Source: Alphaproteobacteria bacterium (lineage in GTDB: Bacteria; Pseudomonadota; Alphaproteobacteria; Rs-D84). From it: DNA of 64,000 nucleotides. Of this stretch, positions 8,857-63,388 are shown piece by piece (the stretch's first letter is position 1; the number at the start of each line of letters is the position of its first letter). The notes beneath the pieces were generated by a model. The model worked only from the letters and a program-made list of their open reading frames with translations, had not been told where the DNA came from and did no database searches. A program made the position numbers and the translations under genes. The stretch spans positions 7,256-71,255 of the forward strand of contig JAFXVM010000001.1 in NCBI GenBank assembly GCA_017524525.1, given 5' to 3'.

Positions 8857-8865
8857 AACATCCCC

Positions 8866-11478: not shown

Positions 11479-11541
11479 ATCTTATACCTATTCATTAAAA
11501 ATGGGTCGCATTTGCGACCCATTGTGTAAGAAAAAACGCGT

Positions 11542-11772: not shown

Positions 11773-11794
11773 TTTATTCCCTTTTGGTTATATG

Positions 11795-12622: not shown

Positions 12623-12794
12623 AAGAAATCCTTTTTGTTTAAGTTAACTGTGCCTTGTGGCATGAAAAAATTTTGATTGATGGTTATGCAAATAATGCGC
12701 CATTAAACAAAACATTACACACGGGTCCACAAAAATGGATTATCCAATAAAAAATTCAGTTAGACTTCTATCATCTAACTGAAAAATTTATCAT

Positions 12795-12825
12795 AAAAAA
12801 ATCCCCAAAATCTGCGATTCTGGGG
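12795..12825 (-). terminator. Intrinsic terminator after the K/A-rich gene
   Basis: On the minus strand: CCCCAGAATCGCAGATTTTGGGG hairpin followed by a T-run. Confidence 0.6.
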
Positions 12826-12848
12826 ACAAATAATTGATTAACTATTTA

Positions 12849-13142: not shown

Positions 13143-13239
13143 AATTCTCTCCTTTCTATGTTTTCGGATAGAACAAAATTTTTTTGTTCTTGTTTTATAT
13201 TTTATATGAAAGAAAACAAATAGTAAAGAATAAAATGAA

Positions 13240-13896
13240 TTATGAATATAATTTTTTAAAACCATTTTCAATTTTTCTAACATACTCTTCATCATGATCG
13301 CGCCAATATTTTGGATCGCGCATCATATCACGCAGAACATCATCTGTTAAATTTTCTGTCGAACTTTTATTTGTTAAAACATCAGGTTCCATTGATTGCA
13401 TCATCTTGTATATACCTTGTATTCCCTGGGGTGTAGCGCACAATTCATCAAATGCATCTTTTGGTAAATATCTTTCACCAAACGCATTTATTTCACGTAA
13501 AGCATCTTTCATTTTTTCATCATCACCAAAAAAATTTTTCAATTCATTTATAGCATTCGTTTGATTTTGTAATTGAAATAAATTTTTTAATGTTGGTTGT
13601 AAAAATTCTTCTGCGATTGCATAAATTTGTTCAACTTGTTTTGAAGTTAAACCAATTTCATGAAATTTTTCGCGAACCGATTCGTCTTCAAACAAAGGAT
13701 TGATTGGATAATCAGCAGCACTATCTGGGACACCAATTGCATGATTAAACTTTTGTTTTGTTGCATCATCACTATCATCTTTTGGCAAAGATATCATGTT
13801 GCTCATTTTCTTTTCGAGTTCACAATATGATTTTACTAACGCAGATGTATTTAATTCACCTTTGTCATCTAGAAATTTTTCTGGAATTTGTTCCAT
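13240..13896 (-). CDS. Capsid scaffolding/assembly protein
   Basis: 218 aa from ATG 13896 (AAGGAAA RBS). Acidic and helical. MEQIPEKFLDDKGELNTSALVKSYCELEKK resembles podovirus scaffold N-termini. Lies upstream of the capsid gene. Confidence 0.5.
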   Translation of the reverse strand: MEQIPEKFLDDKGELNTSALVKSYCELEKKMSNMISLPKDDSDDATKQKFNHAIGVPDSAADYPINPLFEDESVREKFHEIGLTSKQVEQIYAIAEEFLQPTLKNLFQLQNQTNAINELKNFFGDDEKMKDALREINAFGERYLPKDAFDELCATPQGIQGIYKMMQSMEPDVLTNKSSTENLTDDVLRDMMRDPKYWRDHDEEYVRKIENGFKKLYS

Positions 13897-14086
13897 TAGA
13901 TTTTCCTTTGGTTGAAGATTCTTGTTTAAGAAAATAAATGCCCCCCAATGTGAATATTGTTTGCAGCATTGAAAACACATCTGCATCACCAACAAGATAT
14001 GCGCCCACAGCAGATACAATACCGACACTGGAAATAACATAAGTTTTACGATTTTGTAAATAACCGCCTTTGATTATTTTGTTCAT
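13865..14086 (-). CDS. Small membrane protein, holin candidate
   Basis: 73 aa with two hydrophobic segments (VISSVGIVSAVGAYLV and LQTIFTLGGIYFL). Lies immediately after the hydrolase gene. Confidence 0.4.
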   Translation of the reverse strand: MNKIIKGGYLQNRKTYVISSVGIVSAVGAYLVGDADVFSMLQTIFTLGGIYFLKQESSTKGKSNGTNSRKISR

Positions 14087-20214: not shown

Positions 20215-20655
20215 ATGCATGATGAATTAGAAAAGAAAATTTATGAAATAATAAACAATCTGGATGACGAACTATTGCAGGCTCACGCAATTGATAAAAA
20301 CAATAACGCACTTGACGTAAATGCCTTTAATCGTATCTTGGATAAAAAAATAAAAGAATTACATGCTCTTGAACCTTTGGTCGCTGACGAAATGGGGATT
20401 GTGACGGATAGATACGGCGCAAAAATTTTGTTCCATCACATTTCCGTGTTGCAAGACAAGAAAGATAGAAACACAGCAAACACGGCTGATTATCTATACG
20501 ACCATAAAAAAATAACAGCAGTCAAAAAAACTACAGACACAGCAAAAGAGCTCCCATTAACACAAACAGAACACGTATCAAAACTATCAAAAATTTCTCT
20601 TTTTATAAAGAAAGCTTTTCAAAAAATTGTATCTAACGAGGGACATTCTATATAA
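20215..20655 (+). CDS. Hypothetical protein, tandem paralog A
   Basis: 146 aa. The N-terminal ~80 aa are clearly similar to the next ORF (LxQAHAIDxNNN...ELxALExLVAxEMGIVTDxYG). Confidence 0.5.
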   Translation: MHDELEKKIYEIINNLDDELLQAHAIDKNNNALDVNAFNRILDKKIKELHALEPLVADEMGIVTDRYGAKILFHHISVLQDKKDRNTANTADYLYDHKKITAVKKTTDTAKELPLTQTEHVSKLSKISLFIKKAFQKIVSNEGHSI

Positions 20656-20707
20656 TTATACAATTTTCAATAAAAAATAACAAAACCAAAACAAAAAGGA
20701 GAACCAA

Positions 20708-21124
20708 ATGTCAGATGTTTTATTAACAAAAATTCATGAGATTGTAGATAATTTGAAAACCGAATTGCGGCAAGCACATGCAATCGATACGAACAATAAT
20801 GTAATCAATTCAGAAATTTTTAATCGTATTTTGAAGCAAAAAATGACAGAGTTAAACGCACTCGAATCTCTGGTCGCTAACGAAATGGGAATAGTTACAG
20901 ATAAATACGGTTCACAAATTTTATTTAACACAATAACATTGCTGAACGATATGATAGAATATCAAAGTTTGACACCGGACGATGTACGTGCAGAATACCA
21001 TGCAGACATGCAAAAAAAACATGATGTCCCTTCAAGCACACCTAATCCTTTGCCTTTTAAAAAAGGGATTCTTAAGCTTTTTAAAAATTTTCAGCGTAAA
21101 ACCCCAGACACTTCTCGTGGGTAG
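20708..21124 (+). CDS. Hypothetical protein, tandem paralog B
   Basis: 138 aa. AAGGAGAA RBS. Paralog of 20215-20655 with a divergent C-terminus. Confidence 0.5.
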   Translation: MSDVLLTKIHEIVDNLKTELRQAHAIDTNNNVINSEIFNRILKQKMTELNALESLVANEMGIVTDKYGSQILFNTITLLNDMIEYQSLTPDDVRAEYHADMQKKHDVPSSTPNPLPFKKGILKLFKNFQRKTPDTSRG

Positions 21125-21182
21125 AGAGTTTTTCAAACTTATCAATTTATCAATCTAGAGGCCCCTCAGGAGTCTCTTTTTT

Positions 21183-22894: not shown

Positions 22895-22985
22895 GGAGAC
22901 GTCGCATAGTTGGTCTAGTGCGCCACATTGGAAATGTGGTATACTCGCAAGGGTATCAAGGGTTCGAATCCCTTCGTCTCCGCCA
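22895..22985 (+). tRNA. tRNA-Ser (anticodon GGA)
   Basis: Folded by hand. Acceptor GGAGACG pairs with CGTCTCC. Anticodon stem CCACA/TGTGG with loop TTGGAAA. Long variable arm, T-arm AAGGG-TTCGAAT-CCCTT, and an encoded CCA. Confidence 0.9.
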
Positions 22986-23188: not shown

Positions 23189-23346
23189 CGGTGGTTTTTT
23201 TGATTTTAACTGGCGGGACGAGGGGATGCGCCAGAGTGCCAAAGGCGCGCATGGCGAATACGCAGATAAACAATTAGAAAAATTTTCAAAAATTGAAGTT
23301 TACAAGATTTTTATAATTTTTATTATTGTTTATCAAGACAGGAATT

Positions 23347-31522: not shown

Positions 31523-32662
31523 TTATTCGTTATAAAATAAATTTATGTAATCTTTGTAATACCATTTTTGCGCATATGCATTATCACCAAGTTTTACTAA
31601 AATTCCCATTTTTACCAATCGGTTTATCATTTTATACCCAGACGGTTTTGATGTTCCTGTCCATTTCATAATATCTGATATACCAACAATAGGCATTTTA
31701 TATAAATTTTCCAATACAGTCATTGTTGATTGTGATACCGCTTTACCTAAAACTTTTACTTTATCTGTATCTCGTTCACGTATTTTTGTAATCAAAGCAC
31801 ATGTTTTGATGGCGGAATTTGCAGTGTCAATAATTCCATCCAAAAAGAAATCCAACCAACCAACAATGTCGCCATTATGATAATCATTTAACTTTTGATA
31901 ATATATACTTCTGTGTTGTTTGAAATATGCCGATAAATACAATATAGGCATTTCCAACAACTTTTTATACCATAAAAACATTGTTATCAATATACGACCT
32001 GTTCGACCATTGCCATCATTAAATGGGTGAATTGTTTCAAATTGTGCATGCAATAAACCTGCCTTAACAAGTGGTAAATAATCATCATTTGCATGTATAA
32101 ATTTTTCTAAATCATTCAAAGCACGTGTCATTTCCTCAACTGGTGGTGGGACATAGGTCGCATTATCTGGTCTGGTGCCACCAATCCAATTTTGACTGGT
32201 TCTAAATTCCCCAGGATAAGAATTATGTGTGCTTCGTGCTTTCAACATCAATTTTGAGTGTAATTCCCTGATAAATCTTAAAGACAAAGGAAAATCTTTG
32301 GCTCGAACAAGGCCATAATTCAATGCATTTATATAATGCATAATATCATCTACATCTTCAGGCAAAGAATTGCTTGGTTCTACGTTTTCTTTTTCAATAA
32401 CATCCATCATAGTTGCATTTGTGCCTTCAATTTGACTAGAAGATGATGCGTCCTTTTTTACAAACATAACCAAAAACCAATCTTTATCAGGTAATAATTC
32501 TGTAATACCGTCCAATTTACCTAATAATCTTATTGCTTCCGTATGCTTTGAAATTATTGTATTTGGTAAAGATAATTGTTTAACAGGCGGAAAAGAATTT
32601 GGAATAAATGCCTTAAAACCCGCAGATTGTTTTACAAAATTACCTATTTTTATATTATTCAT
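31523..32662 (-). CDS. Fic family protein with C-terminal winged-helix domain
   Basis: 379 aa. Canonical Fic motif HPFNDGNGRTGR. N-terminal Fic_N-like region. C-terminal GYKMINRLVKMGILV is wHTH-like. Confidence 0.85.
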   Translation of the reverse strand: MNNIKIGNFVKQSAGFKAFIPNSFPPVKQLSLPNTIISKHTEAIRLLGKLDGITELLPDKDWFLVMFVKKDASSSSQIEGTNATMMDVIEKENVEPSNSLPEDVDDIMHYINALNYGLVRAKDFPLSLRFIRELHSKLMLKARSTHNSYPGEFRTSQNWIGGTRPDNATYVPPPVEEMTRALNDLEKFIHANDDYLPLVKAGLLHAQFETIHPFNDGNGRTGRILITMFLWYKKLLEMPILYLSAYFKQHRSIYYQKLNDYHNGDIVGWLDFFLDGIIDTANSAIKTCALITKIRERDTDKVKVLGKAVSQSTMTVLENLYKMPIVGISDIMKWTGTSKPSGYKMINRLVKMGILVKLGDNAYAQKWYYKDYINLFYNE

Positions 32663-39201: not shown

Positions 39202-39819
39202 ATGGCTAAATTACATTTTTATTACGGTGTTATGGCATCTTCTAAATCTGCCCTGCTTTGCATCAATGCGTATAATTTAAGACGCACTGACAATAAATTT
39301 GAAGTTATTAAACCATCCATAGACAACCGCGATTCAACCAGCAAAATCGTTTCCAGAATCGGTCTGTCAACTGATGCACGCGCATTACCAAATCTTGATA
39401 ATTACAAACCAAAACGCGGAACACAGTTTATACTGATTGACGAAGTTCAATTTTTTTCGCCATCCGACATTGATAAATTGGTTCAAATTGCAGACCATTC
39501 AAAAATAACTATAATTTGTTATGGTTTGGTCGTGGACAGCAATGGGAATATGTTTCCTGCGTCCAAAAGATTATTTGAAGCAAATGCAGAAAAACACGAA
39601 ATTGAAACAGTTTGCGAAATGCCAGGTTGCGTAAATTCAGCCAATAATCATTTGCGCTTTGACGCCAAAGGCAATGTTATTCGTGGTGGCAGCCAAGTTG
39701 AAGTTGGCGCATCACAATATAAATCTGTGTGCCGTCAGCACTTTAATTCGATATACTATGGCAATCCAAACTTTAACCTGTTGGCATACATACGCGACAC
39801 AAAAAGAAGACAAAAATAA
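39202..39819 (+). CDS. tdk: Thymidine kinase
   Basis: 205 aa. Collinear with E. coli Tdk as I recall it (LHFYYGVMASSKS, ILIDEVQFF, ICYGL, VCRQH). The P-loop reads SSKS rather than AGKS. Confidence 0.8.
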   Translation: MAKLHFYYGVMASSKSALLCINAYNLRRTDNKFEVIKPSIDNRDSTSKIVSRIGLSTDARALPNLDNYKPKRGTQFILIDEVQFFSPSDIDKLVQIADHSKITIICYGLVVDSNGNMFPASKRLFEANAEKHEIETVCEMPGCVNSANNHLRFDAKGNVIRGGSQVEVGASQYKSVCRQHFNSIYYGNPNFNLLAYIRDTKRRQK

Positions 39820-39852
39820 AACACGACCTAAAGCCGTGTTTTATTTTTATTC

Positions 39853-39865
39853 TGGCGCGCCCAGA
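39853..39865 (-). repeat. 13-nt copy of the tRNA-Arg 3' end
   Basis: tggcgcgcccaga is identical to 40054-40066. Confidence 0.6.
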
Positions 39866-40053
39866 TTCCTCCTTGATAAACAATAATCAACCCTATGCAA
39901 AAACTCTATTAAACATATCCGTTTTTGCACGGTTGCTAATTGTTCATCTACGTATTCGCCATGCGCTTTGCTCTGGCGTATCCTTCTGGGCGACACACAT
40001 CAACAATGTTTAATAAAAAAATGCCACACGAGGTGGCATTTTTTATTAAATCG

Positions 40054-40130
40054 TGGCGCGCCCAGAAGGATTCGAACCCTCAACCTTCTGATCCGTAGTC
40101 AGATGCTCTATCCAATTGAGCCATGGGCGC
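40054..40130 (-). tRNA. tRNA-Arg (anticodon ACG)
   Basis: The reverse complement folds by hand. Acceptor GCGCCCA pairs with TGGGCGC. Anticodon stem TCTGA/TCAGA with loop CTACGGA. T-loop TTCGAAT and an encoded CCA. Confidence 0.9.
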
Positions 40131-40366
40131 AATGTTTTATATTTTATACCCTTTTATTTGAATTGCAAGAAAAAATAATAAATTTACGAAGCACGTGTTT
40201 TCAACACTTTTGGTATTCTTGACCGTCGCCTTTGGCGATACACCGCATATAGCGGGAAAATTTTGCGTTTATGACGGAAGCATAAATTTCCCCTTGCGGG
40301 GGTTGGGGAAAAATAGTATAATACCAATATGATAAATTAATTAGAGAATTGGGGGATTTTCATACC

Positions 40367-41605
40367 ATGAAATTCACAAAATTTACATTTTTAATGCTGG
40401 GCGCAACAGTGTTATCGTTGGGACAAATGGGCGACACCTATGCTACATCTTGTACAACTGCTGGGGCTGGAAGTGTGTGTCTCGGGACAACACTTAGAGA
40501 TTGTGCTCCAGGTTGTTATTGCACAGGCGGAGGAAACTGGTCAATCTCAAAAGGTGATTTTCACGATGCCTGTTCTAAGAGATGGTCCAATGTTGACGGA
40601 ACACATGGAGCATATTTGTGTCCTAAAGACTTCCCAAACTCTGCCAATAAAGCATCAAAAGACACTGAATGTTATACTACTTGGGGCAACTCAGTGGTTT
40701 TCTATCATACGGTTATAAATTGTGAACCAGGTTATTATCTACCAAAAAAAACAACGGAATGTGCCGAATGTCCAACAGACGAAGGAAACGCAGATAAATA
40801 CTGTCCTGGTTCTGCTAGTGAAAATGGTTTTTGGGTAAGTCCTGATTATGATAAAGGTTTAAAAAACTGCGCATCTGGATACACACCAAACAGATATCGT
40901 ACAGGCTGTGATAAAATTCCTGACCCGGTGCAATGTATACAAGGGTCCTTTTTGCCCGCTAATTCAAAAGATTGCGCTGAATGCCTGGATGGGTTCGTGT
41001 GTCCTGGCGCTTTGGACGAAAACAATAAACTATTGAACAAACCAGGGGAGTATGCACCTGATTTACCAATTAAACAAGGGATATATTATCCAGACGAAAT
41101 ATGCACCGGGGCGGATGAAATAGTTAATCGTAACAAAAGCGGATGCACTTCGTGTGGGGCGGGCAAGAAAGCAAATGAACAACACACGGAATGTGTGGAT
41201 GCGGAAATAACGGTTCCAGCGGGGGAATATTTGCCTGCTAATCGCGTTGAACCCGTTGATTGTACAGGGGCAAAAAAATTCTGTCCTGGTGGAAAATTCA
41301 TGAAAAAAGAAATTGAACAGGGTCGCTATGATTGTCCTTTTAATTCAACCCCTAAGAAAATAAATCCCACCAGTGCTGGTTTTGATGGTTGCGATTTGAA
41401 TTTGACCAAAGACCAAATGAAGAATGGTATTTCTGGTAATGGGGAATGTTGGAAAAAAACAGACCCTGACGATTACAGATATTGCATTTATGGCGTTCGT
41501 TTCGAATTGCCTAACAACTATATGGGTGGTGGCAAAGGTCCTGCTGTTTATAATCTACCCAGCATGCCATACGTGCAAGCAACAATTATCAAGAGGGGAC
41601 AATGA
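40367..41605 (+). CDS. Secreted cysteine-rich repeat protein (furin/TNFR/ephrin-receptor-like Cys modules)
   Basis: 412 aa from ATG 40367. Signal peptide FTFLMLGATVLSLGQMGDTYA. Roughly 35 or more Cys in recurring modules: CAPGCYCTGG, CEPGYYLPKKTTECAECP, CIQGSFLPANSKDCAECLDGFVCPG, and PAGEYLPANRVEPVDCTGAKKFCPGG. Confidence 0.6.
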   Translation: MKFTKFTFLMLGATVLSLGQMGDTYATSCTTAGAGSVCLGTTLRDCAPGCYCTGGGNWSISKGDFHDACSKRWSNVDGTHGAYLCPKDFPNSANKASKDTECYTTWGNSVVFYHTVINCEPGYYLPKKTTECAECPTDEGNADKYCPGSASENGFWVSPDYDKGLKNCASGYTPNRYRTGCDKIPDPVQCIQGSFLPANSKDCAECLDGFVCPGALDENNKLLNKPGEYAPDLPIKQGIYYPDEICTGADEIVNRNKSGCTSCGAGKKANEQHTECVDAEITVPAGEYLPANRVEPVDCTGAKKFCPGGKFMKKEIEQGRYDCPFNSTPKKINPTSAGFDGCDLNLTKDQMKNGISGNGECWKKTDPDDYRYCIYGVRFELPNNYMGGGKGPAVYNLPSMPYVQATIIKRGQ

Positions 41606-41680
41606 GTCCGGATCAAACAACAGCAAAGCCTTCAACTCAACCGGCAATCGGTAAAGGGAATAATATTTAAACACTATTGT

Positions 41681-41710
41681 CACCCATCGTTCCCGATGGG
41701 TGTTTTTTTT
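41681..41710 (+). terminator. Intrinsic terminator
   Basis: CACCCATCGTTCCCGATGGGTG followed by T8. Confidence 0.7.
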
Positions 41711-41762
41711 GATTTTTTGTTACAGAGTGTATGCTTGTCACACGAAGTTTTAACGAAGTGGG

Positions 41763-41915
41763 GTCATTGCGAAGAACAAAATTGGCAACCAAGCAACGCT
41801 GTTGTTAATTTTGTGACGTGGCAATCCAGGTGTATTATTGTGTCTGGCGTTCCGACAGACTGCTTTTCTATAAAAACCTGGATGCTCACGCTCGTTTACA
41901 CTCGCTCAGCATGAC
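41763..41915. repeat. Nested imperfect palindromic element (REP/MITE-like)
   Basis: The outer arm gtcattgcgaagaac (41763) matches the reverse complement of ctcgctcagcatgac (41901). The inner arm cgtggcaatccaggt (41817) matches the reverse complement of acctggatgctcacg (41876). Confidence 0.55.
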
Positions 41916-41935
41916 ATAGCCCGTTGAGCTGTTTA

Positions 41936-42018
41936 ACCCCCTCCCGCCTGCGGCGTACTCCCCCACATTGGGGGAGAACCCTCCCCCGCCCTGCGGGTCC
42001 CCGCCCCCCAAGGGGAGA
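41936..42018. repeat. GC-rich C/G-tract element with hairpins
   Basis: ccccctcccgcctgcgg...ctcccccacattgggggag...ccctcccccgccctgcgggtccccgccccccaaggggag. It stands out against the AT-rich background. A related ccccttgcgggggttgggg occurs at 40290-40308. Confidence 0.6.
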
Positions 42019-42022
42019 ATTT

Positions 42023-54286: not shown

Positions 54287-55510
54287 TTATATTTTTTTGA
54301 ATATTAACGATGTGTTTATGCCACCGAATGCGAAATTATTATTCATAACATAATCTGTTTTTATTTCGCGCCCTGCCCCCATTATGTAATCCAATTTACC
54401 ACATTCCGGATCTGGGGTTTGTAAATTTAATGTTGGCGCAAACCAATTATCATTCATCATTTGAATTGCCCAAATAGATTCCAGCGCACCACACGCACCC
54501 AAAGTATGTCCAACGTAACCCTTTTGTGTACTGCAAGGTGTGTTATTTCCAAAAACAACTTCCGTAGCCAAAGATTCAGCCATATCCCCATGTTTTGTTC
54601 CTGTGCCGTGCATATCGACATATCCAATAGATTCTGGTTTTAAATTCGCAGATTCCAGTGAAAGTTGCATACACTTTGCCATCATATCTTTGTTAGGTTG
54701 GGTTATATGTGTACCATCTGTATTTGTTCCAAAACCAACAATTTCCGCATATATTTTTGCACCACGTGCGATTGCGTGTTCGTATTCTTCCAGTATCAAT
54801 GTTGCTGCACCTTCACCGATAACAAGACCATCGCGTTTTACATCAAATGGTGATGGTGTTTTATCTGGCGTTTCATTTTTAACACTGGTCGCATAAAGCG
54901 TATCGAACACTGCCACCTGGGTTGAATCAAGTTCTTCGGCACCACCAGCAATCATGACATCTTGCGCGCCTGATTTAATTGCTTCATACGCATAACCAAC
55001 AGCCAAACTGCCCGAAGTGCACGCAGTTCCACTCGGTATCAAACGACCCGTGGTTTTAAAATACAAAGATATATTCACAGCAGTTGTTTGTGGCATAATT
55101 TTTATGTACGAAGATGAATTTATTTGACCTACTTCGTGTGTTTTTACCATAGAATAAAAATCAAGTACTGGTCCCGCTGAACCAAACGAAGAACCATACG
55201 CAACCCCAGTACGCCCTGAGGTTATAATTTCATCATCTAATAAACCCGCGTCATTTAAGGCTTGTTCTGTGGCATTAACTGCCATTACAGACACAGGTCC
55301 CATAGTACGCAAAACTTTGCGCGTATAATGTTCAGGAACAACGAAGTTTTTAACTGGCGCAACAATATGCGCATTAAGCCCGCGAATTTGTTCCAAATCT
55401 TCGCTTTTTTCAACAGCATTTTTATAAACATGCAAACGCTTGTACGCACTTTGAACATCGTTTCCCAATGCGCTTATTAAACCTATTCCTGTGACAACTA
55501 CGCGTTTCAT
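54287..55510 (-). CDS. Beta-ketoacyl-ACP synthase (KAS I/II type) of APE-like cluster
   Basis: 407 aa. Active-site GTACTSG (Cys), then THITQP and MHGTGT (His, His). Confidence 0.85.
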   Translation of the reverse strand: MKRVVVTGIGLISALGNDVQSAYKRLHVYKNAVEKSEDLEQIRGLNAHIVAPVKNFVVPEHYTRKVLRTMGPVSVMAVNATEQALNDAGLLDDEIITSGRTGVAYGSSFGSAGPVLDFYSMVKTHEVGQINSSSYIKIMPQTTAVNISLYFKTTGRLIPSGTACTSGSLAVGYAYEAIKSGAQDVMIAGGAEELDSTQVAVFDTLYATSVKNETPDKTPSPFDVKRDGLVIGEGAATLILEEYEHAIARGAKIYAEIVGFGTNTDGTHITQPNKDMMAKCMQLSLESANLKPESIGYVDMHGTGTKHGDMAESLATEVVFGNNTPCSTQKGYVGHTLGACGALESIWAIQMMNDNWFAPTLNLQTPDPECGKLDYIMGAGREIKTDYVMNNNFAFGGINTSLIFKKI

Positions 55511-56235
55511 TAAATCATTCCCCCATTTACTGATATAACCTGACGTGTGATATAAGACGCATCATCGCTTAACAAATATGCAACCAACGATGCAATCTCA
55601 CTTGGCTTTCCCATACGACGCATCGGTATCATTTTTTCAATTTCTTCTGTTGGCAATTCGGCAGTCATATCTGTTTCGATTACACCTGGTGCAATTGCGT
55701 TTACAGTGATATTACGTTTAGCCAATTCAACCGCCAAAGATTTTACAGCACCAATTATGCCCGCTTTGGAAGCCGCATAATTAACCTGACCACGATTTCC
55801 CATAACGCCGGAAATCGAAGATAACGCGATAATACGACCGCCCTTGCGTGCAGATATCATCGGCATCACACAAGGATGCAATACATTATAAAGTCCATCC
55901 AAATTTGTATGTAAAACTTTGTCCCATGCGTCACCACTTAAGGCCGGAAAAGGTGCGTCCGCCGCAATCCCTGCATTACAAATCACCCCGTAATATGCAC
56001 CATGTTCGTTTATATCATCTGTTAACTTTTTTTCGACATCTTGACGATTAGAAATATCAAAAGCCAACAAGCGCGCATGTCCACCCAAAGATTCTATTTC
56101 CTTTAATGTCTGTTCAGCCGCATTTTTGTTTGAATTGTAATGCAAAACCAAATCGTACCCCAGTGGCGCCAGATAAAGCGCAATCGCATGTCCTATGCCA
56201 CGAGAAGCACCAGTAATTAAAACAGTTTTATTCAT
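55510..56235 (-). CDS. 3-oxoacyl-ACP reductase (SDR, FabG-like)
   Basis: 241 aa. TGASRGIG and YAASKAG (YxxxK). Confidence 0.85.
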   Translation of the reverse strand: MNKTVLITGASRGIGHAIALYLAPLGYDLVLHYNSNKNAAEQTLKEIESLGGHARLLAFDISNRQDVEKKLTDDINEHGAYYGVICNAGIAADAPFPALSGDAWDKVLHTNLDGLYNVLHPCVMPMISARKGGRIIALSSISGVMGNRGQVNYAASKAGIIGAVKSLAVELAKRNITVNAIAPGVIETDMTAELPTEEIEKMIPMRRMGKPSEIASLVAYLLSDDASYITRQVISVNGGMI

Positions 56236-56695
56236 TTCCTTTCTCCATAAAGTTATTCAAATCGTCTGGGCGAAAAGCGTTAAGGTTGCCTTCCGCAACA
56301 AGTGTATTATTGGCATCGTATATTTTACATTCAAACGAAGCGATATTATTATCACAAAACAAAGATTGAACATGAACATAATAACTTTCGTTAACATTAA
56401 ATTTTGGAATCATAAAATGTAAATCTCGCGATCCCATAATAAATCCTGCCACCGCTTTTGTTTCGCCTGTGATATGTATATCTTGGGCACCAATATAGCA
56501 CGCTATGGATTGAGCCATATATTCCAACGCAGCCACAGATGAAATACCATTTATATTTTTTTGGTAAAGCAAATCTGTGTCGCGAATATCAATGCGCGTA
56601 ATCATTTTTTGATTATCAAAATCAACGGATTCTATGTCCGTAATAAATGCCATTGGGGCTTTCTGTGGTAATAAATCAATTGGTTTAAAATTCAT
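56228..56695 (-). CDS. Hotdog-fold 3-hydroxyacyl-ACP dehydratase-like protein
   Basis: 155 aa. Lies between the KS and KR genes. Size and pattern fit ApeP-like dehydratases. Confidence 0.55.
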   Translation of the reverse strand: MNFKPIDLLPQKAPMAFITDIESVDFDNQKMITRIDIRDTDLLYQKNINGISSVAALEYMAQSIACYIGAQDIHITGETKAVAGFIMGSRDLHFMIPKFNVNESYYVHVQSLFCDNNIASFECKIYDANNTLVAEGNLNAFRPDDLNNFMEKGNE

Positions 56696-56697
56696 TT

Positions 56698-57834
56698 TTA
56701 TTTCCCCATTATTAAACTGGCATTACTGCCCCCGAAAGCGAAAGCATTACACAACACGCGGTTTATTTCTTTGTTGTCCCCAATTTGTGCCAGACGAATG
56801 TCAGCACAATCTGGCGCAAAATTTCCATCATACACATGCGGAATAACAAAATTGTATTTAAGCATTAACCAAGACAGCCCCATGCTCACAGCCCCAGCAG
56901 CACCCAAAGTATGTCCTGTCAAAGGTTTAGTTGATGCACACAAAACTTCATCACCAAATACTGTATTTATTGCCAAAGATTCCATAGCATCATTTGCGAC
57001 AGTGCCTGTTCCGTGCATATTTATAAAATCTATGTCTTTTGGGGTTAATCCTGCGCCTGACAATGCTTTTTGCATAGAATCTATGGCACCAGAACCCGTT
57101 GGGTCTGGGCTGGTTAAATGGTATGCGTCCGAACTTTCACCAATGCCCAACAATTTAATTCCACTGTTCCCTTTTTCCATAATAAATAATGCTGCGCCTT
57201 CGCCCAGATTTATCCCGTCCCGATTTTGCGACATTGGATTAGTGTGATTTTTACTTAATGCCCCCAATGCATCAAAACCATTAAGAGCGAAATCACAATG
57301 ACCATCTACGCCACCAACCAACACAGCATCACAAATATCATTGTCCATAAATTCTTTCGCAGATTGAAAAACTTTTAAACTGGATGAACATGCTGTGGAC
57401 ACGGTAAACACAGGTCCGCAAAAACCTGTCTTTTCACTTATGTATTGTGCGGGTCTGCCCAATTCCAAATCTTCAATCACAGTTCTGTCTATTTGAGTAT
57501 TTGTTTTAAACGCTTTTTCTATCAATTTTTGTGCTTCGTGAACGCCAGTATTAGAAGAACCGATAATAACGCCAACACGATTTGGTGAATATTTTTGTTT
57601 TAATGATTCTAAATCCATAACAATTTGATTTAGCGCACAATCTATTAAATCATACATACGCGCTTCGTGTGTTTGTTCAACAGGCGCACTGCCAAAAGGT
57701 ACTTTTTCACCACCAACCATCACATTGCCAGAAAACATAGCACGTGCATTGCCAACACGCGCATTTTTTACAATATCTTCGTGATTTGCACCCAGTGCAC
57801 ACACGAAACCAAGATTTTTCAATATATATTCCAT
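56698..57834 (-). CDS. Beta-ketoacyl-ACP synthase, second copy
   Basis: 378 aa from ATG 57834 (an alternative ATG is at 57852). STACSSS (Cys), AYHLTSP and MHGTGT. Confidence 0.8.
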   Translation of the reverse strand: MEYILKNLGFVCALGANHEDIVKNARVGNARAMFSGNVMVGGEKVPFGSAPVEQTHEARMYDLIDCALNQIVMDLESLKQKYSPNRVGVIIGSSNTGVHEAQKLIEKAFKTNTQIDRTVIEDLELGRPAQYISEKTGFCGPVFTVSTACSSSLKVFQSAKEFMDNDICDAVLVGGVDGHCDFALNGFDALGALSKNHTNPMSQNRDGINLGEGAALFIMEKGNSGIKLLGIGESSDAYHLTSPDPTGSGAIDSMQKALSGAGLTPKDIDFINMHGTGTVANDAMESLAINTVFGDEVLCASTKPLTGHTLGAAGAVSMGLSWLMLKYNFVIPHVYDGNFAPDCADIRLAQIGDNKEINRVLCNAFAFGGSNASLIMGK

Positions 57835-57910
57835 TTCAAATCCAACTTGCAAAATAGGATTTTTTTTCTATAATGGCACAGTATTATATAAAAAAATCGA
57901 TTTTTCAAGT

Positions 57911-58540
57911 ATGAACAAAACCTTATATATAGATAATTTTGCTTTCTGGACAGAAAACGATATGGAAAAACTTCCTGATGTGTCGTTTATTCCCCCAATG
58001 TTGCGCAGACGTATGAGCGCGCTGGAAAAAATTGCTATTTCATTGGCTGCGCGCGTTGCCCCAGAATCTTTAGATTACCAAGTGATTTTTGCTTCACGAT
58101 TTGGCGAATGGGAACAAACAATCAAACTTATCCGTCAATTCTATGAAGACAAAGAAATGTCTCCTGCGGGGTTCAGTAATTCTGTTCATAATGCTTCAAT
58201 GGGGCATCTGTCTTTGTTGACCCATAATAAAAATTCTTATACATCTATTGCAGGTGGGGAAAAAACTATTGAAAACGCGTTGTTAACAGCCCTGATTTCT
58301 ACAAAACCGGTACTTTTTGTTTATGCCGAAGAACACAACCCAGCAGAATATGAACATTTGTTTGAAAAGCCCATGGTTTCGCACGGCTGTGCTTTGTTTA
58401 TCACTCAAACAGGCAAAAACAAATTTGAATTATCTGCAAACAACCAAACATCACCTGTTTTGACATTTGAAAAATTACAAAATCTTTTTGAACACGAAAT
58501 TGAAATTCAAACCTCTAATTGGTTTTTGACAAGGAAATAA
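57911..58540 (+). CDS. Beta-ketoacyl synthase N-terminal-like protein lacking active-site Cys (chain-length-factor-like)
   Basis: 209 aa. RRMSALEKIAISLA...IFASRFGEW...NSVHNAS is a pattern typical of the small KS-like gene of APE clusters. Confidence 0.5.
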   Translation: MNKTLYIDNFAFWTENDMEKLPDVSFIPPMLRRRMSALEKIAISLAARVAPESLDYQVIFASRFGEWEQTIKLIRQFYEDKEMSPAGFSNSVHNASMGHLSLLTHNKNSYTSIAGGEKTIENALLTALISTKPVLFVYAEEHNPAEYEHLFEKPMVSHGCALFITQTGKNKFELSANNQTSPVLTFEKLQNLFEHEIEIQTSNWFLTRK

Positions 58541-59280
58541 TGAAAAAATTTTTTCGTTCTTTTTTAAGTGGTCTTTGCTTTTCCATTTTTGGAATTGGTG
58601 GCATTATAACAGGCGCAACTTTGGTTCCTGTGCTTTTGATATTTTGTTCCAAACGCACCCAAAAACGCGTATTATCTGGGACTGTTCATCATTTGTGGCG
58701 AGCATTTGTTTGGCTGATGTGTTTTTTAAAACTAATTGATATAAAAATAAAAAACGAACAAATTTTACACGATTTACACGGAAATATAGTAATAGCAAAT
58801 CATCCTTCGTTAATAGATGTCGTTATATTGGTATCAAAAATTCCACGTTCTATTTGTGTTGTAAAGGATAGTTTGTTCAAAAACATGTTTATAAAATCTT
58901 TGATTCGTAGAGTTTATTTGTCTAATTCTGCGTCCCCTGATGATTTTATAAAAGAAGCCACCGAAGATTTAGATAACGGCTATAACATCATAATTTTTCC
59001 CGAAGGAACCAGAACTCAAAAACACAAACCAATCCATATGCATCGCGGTTTTGCTTATCTGCAAATGCATTCAGGGCACGACATTTTACCAATTTACATA
59101 GAAAACAAGCCCCATATTTTAGGCAAAAATACACCTTGGTATGACGTTGGTGATAAAACATCTGTGTATACACTGAAAATACTGCCGAAAATCTTTTTTG
59201 ATACACGAAACAAAAAAACAGATAGAAAAAATGCTGTTTTGATAACAGAAAAGGCAAAAAAATCTCTGTTTTCAGCATAG
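58540..59280 (+). CDS. Lysophospholipid/glycerolipid acyltransferase (PlsC family)
   Basis: 246 aa from ATG 58540 (TAATG overlap, AAGGA RBS). HX4D motif NHPSLIDV and FPEGTR. Confidence 0.75.
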   Translation: MKKFFRSFLSGLCFSIFGIGGIITGATLVPVLLIFCSKRTQKRVLSGTVHHLWRAFVWLMCFLKLIDIKIKNEQILHDLHGNIVIANHPSLIDVVILVSKIPRSICVVKDSLFKNMFIKSLIRRVYLSNSASPDDFIKEATEDLDNGYNIIIFPEGTRTQKHKPIHMHRGFAYLQMHSGHDILPIYIENKPHILGKNTPWYDVGDKTSVYTLKILPKIFFDTRNKKTDRKNAVLITEKAKKSLFSA

Positions 59281-59344
59281 ATTGCTTGACAATCAGGGTT
59301 TCTTTTCCTAGTATTTGCGGGACAGTTCACAAAGGTAAAAAATT

Positions 59345-59620
59345 ATGAAACAACAAACACTTGAACAAGAAATCAAAGAATTGATTATTTCCGCTTTAGA
59401 TTTGGAAGACATCACTGTTGCCGATATAGATTCTAGCGCTCCTTTGTTTACCGAAGGTTTGGGTCTGGATTCCATTGACGCACTGGAACTGGGTATGGCT
59501 TTAAAGAAAAAATATGGTGTCAATTTCAAATCTGACAAAGAAGAAAACAAAGAATATTTTAAATCTGTTGAAAACTTGGCAAAATATATTGCTGAATCTA
59601 AAAATATTACATTGGAGTAA
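59345..59620 (+). CDS. Acyl carrier protein 1
   Basis: 91 aa. Phosphopantetheine site LGLDSIDALEL. Confidence 0.85.
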   Translation: MKQQTLEQEIKELIISALDLEDITVADIDSSAPLFTEGLGLDSIDALELGMALKKKYGVNFKSDKEENKEYFKSVENLAKYIAESKNITLE

Positions 59621-59624
59621 ATAA

Positions 59625-59879
59625 ATGCACACAAAAGAAGAAATTTTTTCCACGATTAAAGATATATTAATTAATGATTTTGGTTGTGAAGAATCTAAAT
59701 TAAAACCAGAATCCAAATTGGTCGAAGATTTAGATTTAGACAGTATTGATGCTGTCGATTTGGTCGTTAAATTGCAAAGCAAAATCAACCAAAAAGTAGA
59801 CCCAGAAGATTTTAAACAAATCCGTACTTTACAGGATGTTGTCGATGCAGTTGAAAAAATCGTTAACAATAATCACTAA
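59625..59879 (+). CDS. Acyl carrier protein 2
   Basis: 84 aa. LDLDSIDAVDL. Confidence 0.85.
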   Translation: MHTKEEIFSTIKDILINDFGCEESKLKPESKLVEDLDLDSIDAVDLVVKLQSKINQKVDPEDFKQIRTLQDVVDAVEKIVNNNH

Positions 59880-59880
59880 G

Positions 59881-60402
59881 ATGTTTCTTGGCGCTTTTGT
59901 TATCGCATATCCTTTTGTAATTTTTTATATGCTGCAACAAAATATTGCTATCAGGTTTATTGGGTTAATTTTGGTGATGGTTGTTGCGCTTTCTTTTGTG
60001 CGCAACAAAAATAAATATTTGTTTATGCTGGGGTTGTTGCTTTGTTTTTTGGTGATTTTTTTTAATCAAGCAATTTTTCTTAAATTCTATCCGGTTTTGA
60101 TGAACGCCGGTGTTTTTTCTGTTTTTGCTTTGTCGTTAAAAAAAGTGCCACTTGTGACACAAATTGCCCAAAGAACAACCAAAGACAATCTTGATGAAGC
60201 CCAATTAACATACACCAAATTAGCAACAATTGCATGGGCGATTTTTATGTTCTGTAATACGATTGCTTCTTTGATTACTGTATTTTTGCCGTATGAAATT
60301 TGGGCGATATATAACGGCTTTATCGCATACATTTTAATCGGTATTATGATGGCAGCAGAATACACAATTCGTAAGGTCAAAAGAAAATGTCCACACCAAT
60401 AA
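59881..60402 (+). CDS. Integral membrane protein of APE-like cluster
   Basis: 173 aa from ATG 59881 with about 5 TM segments. Confidence 0.5.
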   Translation: MFLGAFVIAYPFVIFYMLQQNIAIRFIGLILVMVVALSFVRNKNKYLFMLGLLLCFLVIFFNQAIFLKFYPVLMNAGVFSVFALSLKKVPLVTQIAQRTTKDNLDEAQLTYTKLATIAWAIFMFCNTIASLITVFLPYEIWAIYNGFIAYILIGIMMAAEYTIRKVKRKCPHQ

Positions 60403-62084
60403 GCAAACTTTTTTTAGATAACATTGATGCAAACAGAATTATTTTTTATAAATCTGATGGGATTGTACATTTTGGTGAATATATAAAAGATGTCGCAAAA
60501 TATGCTAATCATTTTTCAAAAATACCATCAAATCAAATTGTGATTTATATACCCGACAATTTTTATTTGTTTTACGTATGTTTTATGGCGGCATTACAAG
60601 CAGGCAAAGACATAATTTTGCCCGCTTTGTTAACAGAACAAAATGCCAAACCTTTGTTGGAAACAACACATTTTTTAATAACTGATAAATTCACATCTTT
60701 CGACGATTTTGAAATAGTAAATTTAGAATGTGAAAATAATGTGAATTGGGATTTCTGTGATGTAAGTGAAAGATTTTTATATTTCTTTACATCTGGTTCC
60801 ACAGGAACGCCAAAACGTATAAAAAAACAATTTAAAATGCTTGCTGCCGAAGTGGCTTTTCACAGCACAAACCAAAAACATTTAATAAATCAAAATCCTG
60901 TTATGATTTCTTCGGTTGCGCCATACCACATGTATGGGTTGTTGTGGCGTTTCTTTTTTCCATTGGCAAATGGGATTGCTTCTGATTTAGACATTATTTT
61001 TACACCTGAAGAATTACAACATAAACAATCTGTGTACGACAAAGTTTTATTCGCAACAACCCCTTCGTTTTTAGACGGCATCACCAGATATCAAAATCAG
61101 TATTCTTTCAAAAACAACTGCATTGGGATTTATTCTTCGGGCAGTTTATTACAAACAAAAACATCTATGGATGCTTATGAAATGTTTGGCGTATCGCCTT
61201 TTGAAATATTTGGCAGCACTGAAACCGGCGGAGTTGCAGGTCGCCAACAAAAAGACGGTCCACAATGGACAATTTTTCCACCTGTAAAAGTGAATTTGAC
61301 AGAAAACAGTGAATTATTAATTGAATCTGATTTTTCTTGTCAAAACCCTTATTTAATGTCTGATATTGTTGAAAAAACCGGTGATAATACTTTTTTACTA
61401 AAAGGACGTGGAGACCGTATGGTAAAAATCGCAGAAGAACGCGTATCCCTGCCAGAAATGGAAGAAAGACTTTGCGAATATAAACATATAGACAAAAGTT
61501 ATGTTAGCGCTTTGAATTCCAAAGATAGAAATATTGTTTGCGCTGTTATTACATTAAATACAGAAGGCAAAAAATATATCATTGAAAATGGCCGACACTT
61601 GTTCGTAAAGGAATTAAAACAATATTTATTAGATTATTTCCCAAATGTCGTATTGCCACGAAAAATAAGAATTGTTAATACTATTCCTGTGAACACCCAA
61701 GGAAAATATATAAAATCTGATATAAACGCAATGTTTGAATCTAATGTTGCTGAACCAATTATGCAAAACATTACAAAGACAGATACTGAATTTGTTGCAG
61801 ATTTAACCTTTTTAAAAGATTCTTCATATTTTAACGGACATTTTCCGGAACACCCTATTTTGCCCGGCGTGATACAAATGCATTTCGTATTATCTTTTAT
61901 AAAACAATATTTTAACAAAGACGCAAATGATTATCATATTTTAAAACTAAAGTTTTCAAATCTAATTTTACCAGATTCTTGTGTGCATTTTGAATTAAAA
62001 CGAAACAGCGAAAACGAATTTATTTTCAGTTATGTCAATGGCGATAAAAAATATTCTTGTGGCAAAATAGCAATAAAGGCGTAA
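60387..62084 (+). CDS. AMP-dependent synthetase/ligase fused to C-terminal FabA/FabZ-like hotdog dehydratase
   Basis: 565 aa. Adenylation motifs YFFTSGSTGTPKRI and FGSTETGG. C-terminal YFNGHFPEHPILPGVIQMHF is the dehydratase motif. Confidence 0.75.
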   Translation: MSTPISKLFLDNIDANRIIFYKSDGIVHFGEYIKDVAKYANHFSKIPSNQIVIYIPDNFYLFYVCFMAALQAGKDIILPALLTEQNAKPLLETTHFLITDKFTSFDDFEIVNLECENNVNWDFCDVSERFLYFFTSGSTGTPKRIKKQFKMLAAEVAFHSTNQKHLINQNPVMISSVAPYHMYGLLWRFFFPLANGIASDLDIIFTPEELQHKQSVYDKVLFATTPSFLDGITRYQNQYSFKNNCIGIYSSGSLLQTKTSMDAYEMFGVSPFEIFGSTETGGVAGRQQKDGPQWTIFPPVKVNLTENSELLIESDFSCQNPYLMSDIVEKTGDNTFLLKGRGDRMVKIAEERVSLPEMEERLCEYKHIDKSYVSALNSKDRNIVCAVITLNTEGKKYIIENGRHLFVKELKQYLLDYFPNVVLPRKIRIVNTIPVNTQGKYIKSDINAMFESNVAEPIMQNITKTDTEFVADLTFLKDSSYFNGHFPEHPILPGVIQMHFVLSFIKQYFNKDANDYHILKLKFSNLILPDSCVHFELKRNSENEFIFSYVNGDKKYSCGKIAIKA

Positions 62085-62087
62085 AAG

Positions 62088-62807
62088 ATGAAGAAACCAG
62101 TTATTATTGTTCCTTGTTTTAATCACGCGGATGCTTTTGTTAACGTTGCTGATAAATTGTCTAAATTTAAACACGATGTTATTGTTGTTGATGATGGAAG
62201 CGAAAAAGCACAATCAAAAAAAATAAAAAAAATTTGTGAAACACATAAATTTTTCTATTTAAAAAATTTGAAAAATGGTGGCAAAGGTGCCGCTATGTTA
62301 ACTGGTTTCCAATTCGCGATAAAAAATGGTTTTACACATGCTTTGCAAATTGATGCAGATGGGCAACACGAAGTTCGTGATATTCCTTTGTTTTTCAAAA
62401 TTGCAAATTCTTATCCAAAAAATTTAATCCTGGGGAACCCGATATATGATGAGTCTGCACCACGGTCTAGATTGATTGGTCGCAAAATAACCGATTTTTG
62501 GGTTATGATTGAAACTTTGAATAAAAACATGCCTGATACAATGTGTGGTTTTCGTGTTTACCCGTTAAAATTAATAGAACCTGTATTGAAAACTATAAAA
62601 TTCAAGCGCATGGGATTTGACATTGAAATCGTGGTGAAAGCCTTTAGAAACGGTGTAAAAATTATTGCTGTGCCAACGAAAGTTGTTTATCCTGAAAGTG
62701 GCGTTTCACACTTTCATGCTTTTCGTGATAATTTTTATATCAGTTTGCTTCATACTTATTTATGTTGTTTAATACCAATATGGTTAATCAAAAGAGGGAG
62801 AAAATGA
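62088..62807 (+). CDS. Family 2 glycosyltransferase
   Basis: 239 aa. IIVPCFNH, VVDDGS, and QIDADGQH. Confidence 0.75.
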   Translation: MKKPVIIVPCFNHADAFVNVADKLSKFKHDVIVVDDGSEKAQSKKIKKICETHKFFYLKNLKNGGKGAAMLTGFQFAIKNGFTHALQIDADGQHEVRDIPLFFKIANSYPKNLILGNPIYDESAPRSRLIGRKITDFWVMIETLNKNMPDTMCGFRVYPLKLIEPVLKTIKFKRMGFDIEIVVKAFRNGVKIIAVPTKVVYPESGVSHFHAFRDNFYISLLHTYLCCLIPIWLIKRGRK

Positions 62808-63388
62808 AAAAAATAATATCAATTTTGGCTTGCGTTTTTTCACTGAACGCGTTTGCATATCCAATCACTGATGAAATGCCTGAAAAATTAAAAAACTTCA
62901 CAAACAATCTGGAATCAGTATCTGCAACATTTAAACAAACCAAGATGTTGCCTGAATCGACAAAACGATTTATATCAAACGGCTATGTAAAATTTGTTAA
63001 AAATGTCGGCTTTACATGGCATCAACAAAAACCAAGCGAAGATGTGTTTACTTCTACTTTGAAAGAATATTGTGTAAACGGCGAAACAAAAGAATTAACA
63101 GAACTGCCCTATTTTTATCGCGTTCAATCTATGATAGATAAAATGTTAAATGGCGATATGACAGATTTTCTGTTTGCTTTTAATGTCGATTACAGCGAAT
63201 ACAAAGACAGTTGGACTTTGGTTGCAACTCCTCGTTTAGTGGTATTAGCTGATATGGTTCAAAATTTAACTATGTATGGAACGACAAAAGATTTAACCAA
63301 GGTTATTATGACATATTATGATGGAACTATTGTTATTTTAGAATTTAATCGTTCAAAGAAAGAAATAGAAGATGAAATCGTTTGTTAA
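62804..63388 (+). CDS. LolA-like outer-membrane lipoprotein carrier protein
   Basis: 194 aa from ATG 62804 (GAGGGAG RBS, ATGA overlap). Signal peptide. F.Q.K pattern (ATFKQTKML). Confidence 0.55.
   Translation: MKKIISILACVFSLNAFAYPITDEMPEKLKNFTNNLESVSATFKQTKMLPESTKRFISNGYVKFVKNVGFTWHQQKPSEDVFTSTLKEYCVNGETKELTELPYFYRVQSMIDKMLNGDMTDFLFAFNVDYSEYKDSWTLVATPRLVVLADMVQNLTMYGTTKDLTKVIMTYYDGTIVILEFNRSKKEIEDEIVC

Follow-up and report, generated by a model that had tools for sequence, protein, structure and literature searches.

The stretch analysed here, 64,000 nt of contig JAFXVM010000001.1 from an Alphaproteobacteria bacterium (hereafter the window), carries between a tRNA-Arg gene and macB an uninterrupted open reading frame for a 412-residue cysteine-rich protein, whose coordinates are collected with those of the other features in Table 1. 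Set beside related loci, this gene alone is hypervariable and recombining in surroundings that are otherwise almost identical, and the hypervariability is the novel result of the analysis. A preliminary description of the same DNA had noted the length of the protein, a signal peptide and an adjacent tRNA, and we recover the open reading frame, a signal-peptide-like N-terminus and the tRNA gene. It had also reported 35 or more cysteines, where we count 28 (6.8% of residues), with three CXXC motifs. The two modules that it quoted, CEPGYYLPKKTTECAECP and CIQGSFLPANSKDCAECLDGFVCPG, are present at residues 119–136 and 190–214. Throughout, the related loci that were fetched are numbered L0xx and the relatives of the protein P0xxx; the product itself appears in the searched protein collection as a 403-residue start variant (P0001).

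The N-terminus, MKFTKFTFLMLGATVLSLGQMGDTYA followed by TS, combines a basic n-region, a hydrophobic core and an A-x-A-like site in the layout of a signal peptidase I substrate, and cleavage would be expected after TYA. The motif MKFTKxTFLMLG at this end is kept across the family of relatives, and the same segment is disordered in the AlphaFold2 (AF2) model of the protein. The C-terminus is hydrophilic and is also disordered in the AF2 model. At this end the relative P0005 finishes with ...GGDNESGSNNSKPFNPTGNR, and the window encodes the same peptide out of frame just past the stop codon (41560–41654), within an open reading frame (41424–41654) that ends ...GDNESGSNNSKAFNSTGNR. The shifted frame points to a 1-nt indel in the window allele, which left the disordered tail ∼16 residues shorter.

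The gene is predicted to be transcribed on its own, from a conserved near-consensus promoter of the sigma-70 type, and has a strong ribosome-binding site and an intrinsic terminator of its own. The block CTTGCx-N17-TAGTATAAT...GGGGGATTT...ATGAAATTCACAAA aligns across six related loci, and so does the ribosome-binding site in the form GGGGGA/AGGAAA (GGGGGA in the window). The promoter spacer is mostly A-rich in those six loci, whereas in the window it is G-rich. A simple promoter scan of the window did not list this promoter.

The alanyl-tRNA synthetase of the window (AlaS) is 86–100% identical to many proteins from metagenome-assembled genomes (MAGs) labelled as Alphaproteobacteria, and shares 88% identity with its counterpart in Candidatus Enterousia merdequi. 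The host is thus a Ca. Enterousia-like lineage (order Rs-D84) with a reduced genome, from ruminant and horse guts. The contig labels TONG22-1, WILK20-1 and XIEF21-1 may be codes of studies on ruminant guts. In the NCBI taxonomy Enterousia stands as Alphaproteobacteria incertae sedis, and a 2025 paper assigned it to the uncultured order Rs-D84, describing genomes of ∼0.75–1.0 Mb from farm-animal guts that lack the tricarboxylic acid cycle and a respiratory chain and miss glycolytic steps, and proposing a partner-dependent lifestyle (PMC12306168). The gene order around the locus is PBP5, holB, tatD, (fic), smpB, HU, alaS, smr, tdk, tRNA-Arg and the cysteine-rich gene, followed in convergent orientation by macB and genes for an ABC ATPase, an HlyD-like protein and an OEP/TolC-like protein; SmpB, Fic, Smr, OEP and HlyD were assigned by Pfam to neighbouring open reading frames, and AlaS, TK and MacB come from called genes.

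Mosaic alleles in a conserved neighbourhood

Each flank of the gene is closely conserved between related genomes, and the gene is not. Compared with L011, the flank proteins are 97–100% identical (AlaS 99%, Smr 100%, Tdk 97%, MacB 99%, ABC ATPase 99%, HlyD 97%, TolC 97%), whereas the cysteine-rich protein is 54% identical. The corresponding values are 87–96% for the flank proteins and 40% for the cysteine-rich protein against L003, and 97% for MacB and 38–45% for the cysteine-rich protein against L016 and L019. At the nucleotide level, blastn of the window against L011 gave flanks that are 96% and 93% identical, a segment at 40259–40452 (the upstream region and the first ∼90 bp of the gene) that is 86% identical, and a final 330 bp of the gene at 86%. 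The breakpoints are sharp, and between the two conserved ends lies the central segment listed in Table 1, for which the L011 allele has no counterpart at the nucleotide level.

Substitution rates follow the same division. Against L011, nonsynonymous divergence (dN) in macB, alaS, tdk and hlyD is 0.007–0.013 and synonymous divergence (dS) is 0.09–0.22. In the C-terminal module, which is 85% identical at the amino acid level, dN rises to 0.096 and dS to 0.43, and across residues 111–275 dN reaches 0.62 with dS saturated. Since dS is raised along with dN, both simple rapid drift and in situ positive selection are ruled out; the alleles are old and were moved by recombination.

Comparisons among the relatives reveal the exchanged pieces themselves. 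P0004 and P0066, from contigs whose AlaS proteins share only 93% identity, are ∼99% identical over residues 1–283 and roughly 60–65% identical after residue 284. Between P0004 and P0067 near-identity is confined to residues 120–283, and the contigs of both encode an AlaS that is 99% identical to that of the window. It follows that at least three very different alleles (those of the window, P0004 and P0067) exist among genomes whose AlaS proteins are at least 99% identical, and the identical segments shared by genomes whose AlaS proteins are 7% apart indicate allele exchange. As judged from these alignments, the comparisons show that the alleles are mosaics exchanged between related bacterial lineages.

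Hypervariable surface loci kept diverse by recombination include flagellin, with its conserved ends and variable middle, and the porin, Opa and pilin genes of Neisseria. The present locus resembles them in combining conserved flanks and gene ends with a highly divergent core, an elevated dS and mosaic alleles spread across lineages. It differs in that the fold and family of the cysteine-rich protein are unrelated to theirs, and in that neither silent cassettes nor paralogues of the gene were found within the 64-kb window.

The variation has accumulated at a fixed address. The same slot (alaS-smr-tdk-tRNA-Arg-gene-macB) holds a family member in L002, L003, L011, L016, L019, L020 and L021, with L012 a rearranged variant of the locus, and no empty site was seen among the related loci retrieved. 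Neither an integrase nor a transposase was found near the gene in Pfam scans of the neighbouring open reading frames. The GC content at third codon positions (GC3) of the gene is ∼0.322, within the 0.25–0.38 of its neighbours and close to the 0.311 expected from their pooled synonymous usage. Total GC is 42% in the gene vs 36% in the window, and the excess comes from codon positions 1 and 2 through codons for Gly, Cys, Pro and Ala. Fragments of the tRNA 3′-end lie at 39850–39866 (direct) and 39977–39992 (inverted), both on the tdk side of tRNA-Arg, and no direct repeat of the tRNA 3′-end brackets the gene.

These results bear on the origin that the preliminary description had proposed, a horizontal acquisition next to a tRNA, possibly from a eukaryotic host, that a check of codon usage and GC might expose. 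Foreign composition is rejected by the native GC3, and a tRNA-linked genomic island is ruled out by that same GC3 together with the lack of an integrase, an empty site and a bracketing tRNA repeat. Position and composition mark the gene as native and not newly imported from a eukaryote, and these sequence data refute its recent acquisition at the tRNA; the exchange that does occur is allele swapping between related bacteria. A phage- or plasmid-borne origin is also ruled out, no relatives having been found in IMG/VR, the INPHARED phages or the PLSDB plasmids.

Table 1. Positions of the cysteine-rich gene, its parts and the surrounding features (window coordinates unless a locus is named)
Feature	Position	Strand	Remarks
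Cysteine-rich protein coding sequence, 412 residues from ATG	40367..41605	+	uninterrupted open reading frame; stop 41603-41605
Signal-peptide-like N-terminus, residues 1-26, MKFTKFTFLMLGATVLSLGQMGDTYA	40367..40444	+	read from sequence
Predicted sigma-70-type promoter of cysteine-rich gene	40294..40322	+	-35 TTGCGG 40294-40299, 17-nt G-rich spacer, -10 TATAAT 40317-40322
Predicted intrinsic terminator of cysteine-rich gene	41681..41710	+	9-bp stem CACCCATCG/CGATGGGTG then T8; region 95% identical in L011
Hypervariable central segment, ~residues 30-273	40452..41186	+	730 bp, no detectable nucleotide similarity to L011 allele
Conserved C-terminal module, ~residues 274-384, KFCPGG...QGRYDCP...CWKKTDPDDYRYCIYGVRF	41186..41518	+	86% nucleotide identity to L011
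tRNA-Arg(ACG), conserved neighbour of cysteine-rich gene	40054..40130	-	inverted locally in this genome
GC-rich nested-palindrome tract abutting macB stop codon	41937..42018		sole >=80% GC island in 64 kb
Non-coding stretch, ~290 bp	41710..42002		among fetched loci only in L006 and L007, copies of the same sequence
G/C-tract or G-quadruplex-prone segments, downstream of gene	window 41937-42018; L011 9390-9422; L002 11155-11182
G/C-tract or G-quadruplex-prone segments, upstream of gene	L016 1573-1600; L019 1423-1450; L021 5876-5907

A bacterial family with a eukaryotic look

By sequence similarity the protein is a member of a new, uncurated bacterial family that belongs mainly to gut Alphaproteobacteria of the Ca. 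Enterousia type (order Rs-D84). Among 5.8 billion proteins, a search with the single sequence returned 51 relatives and one with a profile 77. When 1.84 billion cluster representatives were scanned exhaustively with HMMER, 182 clusters matched at E ≤1e-3 (41 of them at ≤1e-30), and a scan of JGI metagenomes gave one weak match. Family members are named 'hypothetical protein' or, in the case of two distant ones, 'MAG: InlB B-repeat-containing protein [Alphaproteobacteria bacterium]', and none of these names is functional. All homologues with a placeable context lie on bacterial contigs or on four bacterial MAGs, and those with a known context are confined to gut-associated, reduced-genome bacteria rather than being widespread in free-living ones.

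The family alignment shows a conserved signal peptide, then an N-terminal module (CxPGCYCTGG ... LCPxxFPxS...CY), a middle with a variable number of CxxGxYLPxxSxxCxxCPxGxxCxGG ... DQG ... C modules, and a conserved C-terminal module (KFCPGGxF...DQGxYDCP...CWxKTDPxDYxxCIYGxRF), the last of which also closes the 756-residue P0213. Nearly every invariant column is a Cys, Gly or Pro, and most such columns fall in the C-terminal module. Family members carry 26–52 cysteines each, in even number in 36 of 50 relatives. Much longer relatives (for example P0110, 2701 residues) repeat the same module many times and end in Listeria-Bacteroides repeats. The residues preceding the first cysteine form no consistent lipobox across the family, and a lipoprotein was rejected as a candidate.

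One more distant genome offers a separate observation: in L008, an Mtd_N-domain gene (20599–21162) lies ∼9 kb from the gene of the 598-residue family member P0023, in a neighbourhood that also holds genes for an OLD-family nuclease and a phage lysozyme. Mtd_N makes up the N-terminal part of the major tropism determinant, which is linked with diversity-generating retroelements.

The preliminary description had likened the modules to furin-like, TNFR and ephrin-receptor-like repeats of eukaryotes. For the window protein, neither Ephrin_rec_like/GCC2_GCC3 (PF07699) nor TNFR_c6 or Furin-like gave any match in Pfam at E up to 10; the best Pfam match was DUF7631 (PF24634), at E 0.11 and 13.5 bits against a cut-off of 27 bits. 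Nothing significant was found in NCBIfam, and a search of PDB sequences with the family profile returned nothing at E up to 10. Among 28 close relatives, DUF7631 matched weakly in 16 (best E 0.0026), Ephrin_rec_like in 6 (best E 0.0048) and TNFR_ELAPOR1_6th in one (E 0.045), the DUF7631 and Ephrin_rec_like matches all being sub-threshold. Distant multi-repeat relatives do exceed the DUF7631 cut-off (P0110 at 57 bits, P0051 at 37.5 bits, P0126 at 28.6 bits), and they pass it by summed partial matches to model positions 3–20. This is the part of the 50-position model that the repeat core of the family, C-x-AG-x-YLPANS-x-C-x-x-C, resembles. The repeat is thus related to DUF7631, but the likeness ends there, in that the window protein stays below the cut-off and is no scoring member, the model is matched only in part and the domain itself has no known function. 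A literature search on DUF7631 and on bacterial ephrin-receptor-like repeats found nothing useful, and no paper mentioning DUF7631.

Structure prediction gives a similar picture. The AF2 model of the full-length protein, built with the family alignment, has a mean predicted local distance difference test score (pLDDT) of 83, with residues 30–375 mostly above 90, and a model of residues 112–280 reaches a pLDDT of 93 and a predicted template modelling score (pTM) of 0.74; both consist of short beta-hairpins. We took Foldseek E ≤1e-3 with a template modelling (TM) score above ∼0.5 as a structural match. Searches with the full-length and fragment models against PDB and BFVD returned nothing at E ≤1e-3, with query-normalised TM scores of at most 0.25: the best PDB match was 8wa2 for the full-length model (E 5.7e-3, query-normalised TM 0.13), the best for the fragment had E 0.087 and a query-normalised TM of 0.25, and the best in BFVD had E 1.7e-3. 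The top matches, every one of them below significance, were a Chlamydomonas mastigoneme protein, ELAPOR1, members of the TNFR family (4-1BB, CD40, TNFR2, OX40, DR6), the cysteine-rich domain of CaSR, meckelin, and ephrin-receptor-like proteins of giant viruses and TNFR proteins of poxviruses. The nearest structural neighbours are thus all cysteine-rich modules of eukaryotes or of their viruses.

We read this as a genuine likeness of predicted architecture, in which disulfide-type hairpin modules would be strung into a rod, and not as demonstrated membership or homology. With Ephrin_rec_like and TNFR-type domains, including those of ELAPOR1 and the mastigoneme protein, the family shares small disulfide-type beta-hairpin modules arranged in a rod and the motif CxxGxY...CxxCPxG. 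It differs from them in having conserved N- and C-terminal modules of its own, in lacking a transmembrane segment and any kinase or receptor context, and in being bacterial and sometimes combined with Listeria-Bacteroides repeats. What survives of the eukaryote-type repeats in the preliminary description is therefore a secreted-type, cysteine-rich repeat protein with TNFR- and ephrin-like neighbours below significance; a profile match at threshold is lacking. Widespread homologues in free-living bacteria, the opposite outcome that the description had weighed, were not found either, the homologues being those of gut-associated bacteria with reduced genomes. As the family shows, a TNFR- or ephrin-like appearance can emerge or be retained in bacteria with no recent transfer from a eukaryote.

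A second eukaryotic parallel is offered by the variant-specific surface proteins (VSPs) of Giardia, which are CXXC-rich and have a C-terminal transmembrane anchor and a CRGKA tail. Both they and the present protein are secreted (here by prediction), rich in Cys and CXXC, allele-variable and from an anaerobic gut organism. The differences are that the cysteine-rich protein has no match to the VSP family in Pfam (PF03302), no transmembrane anchor and no CRGKA tail, and that it is bacterial, with three CXXC motifs only and a single locus in the window.

A variable, probably exported protein and the alternatives

Taking these results together, we think it probable that the locus is a recombination-driven hypervariable one, encoding a Sec-exported, modular, cysteine-rich rod protein in which a recombining variable core lies between conserved ends, and that the protein is likely exposed at the cell surface and under diversifying selection. 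Export by Sec and removal of the signal peptide would give a mature protein of ∼386 residues, an elongated chain of small beta-hairpin modules held by 28 conserved cysteines that would most likely pair into up to 14 disulfides. The N-terminal (CxPGCYCTGG) and C-terminal (KFCPGG...CWxKTDPxDYxxCIYGxRF) modules would stay constant, and the CxxGxYLPxxxxxCxxC(P)xGxxCxG modules between them would vary in sequence and number. Whole or partial alleles would be swapped between strains and related species by homologous recombination anchored in the gene ends and flanks. Diversifying, frequency-dependent selection could then act on a cell-exposed binding or coat protein, the selective agents being, for example, phages, host antibodies or the specificity for partner cells.

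Such a role would matter for a lineage that is uncultured and for which no interaction factor is known, and which is thought to depend on partners (PMC12306168). With a predicted signal peptide and gene signals that suggest strong expression, the cysteine-rich protein is a concrete candidate for a molecule that meets the outside, be it partner cells, phages or host antibodies. A role in cell interaction, which the preliminary description had proposed, therefore stands in a weak sense, fitting both the hypervariability and the proposed partner-dependent lifestyle, while the eukaryote-derived mimicry to which it was tied is largely refuted.

Several points weigh against this reading. The protein shows no sign of a membrane anchor, a lipobox, a beta-barrel or a sorting motif, and it could therefore stay in the periplasm. 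The variation seen is at the population level only and comes from assembled consensus contigs, and the origin of the 182 representative clusters cannot be traced, since the library carries no names. The host is anaerobic and has no respiratory chain, which makes the oxidative folding of 14 disulfides non-trivial, and no Dsb-type gene lies within the 64-kb window; the cysteines might bind metal instead of forming disulfides. Whether it is answered by oxidative folding or by metal binding, the presence of 26–52 cysteines per extracellular-type protein in a non-respiring anaerobe is a puzzle in itself.

The alternative that fares best, though we regard it as unlikely, is that the protein is a periplasmic or structural housekeeping component whose divergence reflects relaxed constraint and neutral drift of loops on a cysteine scaffold. 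The missing anchor and surface-sorting signal would suit it, as would the conservation of Cys and Gly while the loops drift, and the disordered C-terminal tail with its frameshift-type truncation relative to P0005. Neutral drift cannot, however, raise dS, which is saturated in the middle of the gene vs 0.09–0.22 in the flanks, nor does it account for sharp breakpoints or for identical N-terminal and middle segments in genomes with AlaS 7% different, and conservation is strong at the promoter, the ribosome-binding site and the terminator.

It is somewhat less likely again, arguing by analogy, that the adjacent MacAB-TolC-type pump secretes the protein as an effector or toxin-like cargo, which would fold in the periplasm before its expulsion through the outer membrane, with its hypervariability the outcome of an arms race with its targets. 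The enterotoxin STII of E. coli is exported by MacAB-TolC, and here macB and the genes for the ABC ATPase, HlyD-like adaptor and OEP/TolC-like protein lie directly downstream in the window and in most relatives, next to a gene whose product has a predicted Sec-type signal and no anchor. The convergent orientation and the gene's own terminator nevertheless mean that it does not form one operon with the pump genes. In L012 the pump genes are ∼6 kb away, beyond alaS, and the cysteine-rich gene there precedes a tRNA synthetase gene. A folded protein of ∼40 kDa would also be much larger than the known substrates of MacB, neither a toxin domain nor an immunity gene is present, and the variable part is central and not C-terminal as in polymorphic toxins.

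About as improbable as the pump cargo, and resting on another analogy, is a dedicated variation system in which G-quadruplex (G4) or homopolymeric G/C tracts would initiate recombination or phase variation and so replace the central modules of a TNFR-like cysteine-rich adhesin that chooses the partner or host cell. A G4 element upstream of Neisseria pilE acts as an initiator of this kind. In the AT-rich genomes compared here, segments with a G4Hunter score ≥1.5 are very rare. At the present locus, a segment with a G4Hunter score ≥1.5 lies within ∼400 bp of the cysteine-rich gene in 7 of 9 distinct syntenic loci; it is the locus's sole such segment in 6 of the 9 and one of two in L002, in 7–64 kb of AT-rich DNA. 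The tract lies downstream, abutting the macB stop codon, in the window, L011 and L002, and upstream in L016, L019/L020 and L021, where G8 runs are included. The G8 tracts stand upstream of the gene in L016 and L019, and the promoter spacer of the window has G5 and G4 runs. Among contigs from different samples no polymorphism in tract length was seen (the lengths are identical), the assemblies giving a consensus only, and some of the near-gene tracts are probably just GC-rich terminators.

The preliminary description had treated two such tracts as the boundaries of a repeat-bounded pocket. The downstream one stands as a GC-rich element: it is the sole G4Hunter segment ≥1.5 in the window, has a canonical G4 motif on the minus strand at 41979–42009, and folds into nested hairpins (fold energies of -39 and -49.5 kcal/mol; the z-scores, -1.6 and -2.0, are modest), and its end, CCCCAAGGGGAGAATTTTTATT, looks like a second terminator on the plus strand. 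The upstream one, at 40290–40308, is the -35 box and spacer of the predicted promoter. Pairing between the two extends over just 25 nt at 76% complementarity, so there is no repeat-bounded pocket, and a mobile pocket of that kind is rejected.

Least likely of all is a TNFR-, ephrin-receptor- or furin-like protein derived from a eukaryote, acquired at a tRNA-linked, repeat-bounded pocket and used for host mimicry: the CxxGxYLPxxxxxCxxCPxG motif with its likeness to the Ephrin_rec_like/TNFR consensus, the Foldseek neighbours, the sub-threshold profile matches, the adjoining tRNA and a host living in animal guts rich in protists speak for it, and against it stand the lack of any significant profile or structural match, the bacterial context of the homologues and their bacterial Listeria-Bacteroides repeats, the same slot in nearly all relatives examined, the native GC3 without an integrase, an upstream 'repeat' that is a promoter, and tRNA-derived fragments that lie on the tdk side and not on the gene side. 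On balance, what the preliminary description observed is partly confirmed and what it made of the observation is partly supported.

Other features of the window

Between tdk and the cysteine-rich gene the local arrangement differs from that of the relatives. The tRNA-Arg gene is on the plus strand in L002 and L003, and by blastn the segment 40054–40177 is inverted relative to L002, L003, L011 and L012, which points to a small local inversion within 39812–40177. A 31-nt sequence at 39936–39966, upstream of the tRNA-Arg region, recurs inverted at 23247–23277 with 93.5% identity, and this second copy lies ∼260 nt beyond tRNA-Ser (22895–22985); the sequence is possibly a short dispersed repeat that accompanies tRNA genes.

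The non-coding stretch that follows the terminator (41710–42002) has no match elsewhere in the window or in the other fetched loci except the copies L006 and L007. Rfam searches of the flanks gave the tRNA as the sole match, with none for this stretch, and the phage collection contains nothing that matches 41700–42022.

A Fic/DOC-family gene (PF02661, PF13784) occupies 31523–32662 on the minus strand, between tatD and smpB. The tatD-smpB interval is ∼2.9 kb longer than in the near-identical L011, and the Fic region is therefore probably a strain-specific insertion.

A phage-type cluster at 2354–14040 comprises genes for a head-tail connector/portal protein (2354–3583; PF12236, E 2.6e-79), a DnaB-type helicase (4370–5992), a double-HTH regulator (6055–7068), a capsid protein (11795–12622; PF19821, E 3e-74) and a T7-type capsid assembly protein (13240–14040), and looks like a podovirus-like prophage or its remnant in a genome of ∼1 Mb. 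At the other end of the window, 54287–63388 holds an aryl-polyene-like lipid biosynthesis cluster with several ketoacyl synthases, a ketoreductase, ApeP- and ApeI-like dehydratases, an acyltransferase, an AMP-binding enzyme, a family-2 glycosyltransferase and a LolA-like protein, a notable set of genes in so reduced a genome.

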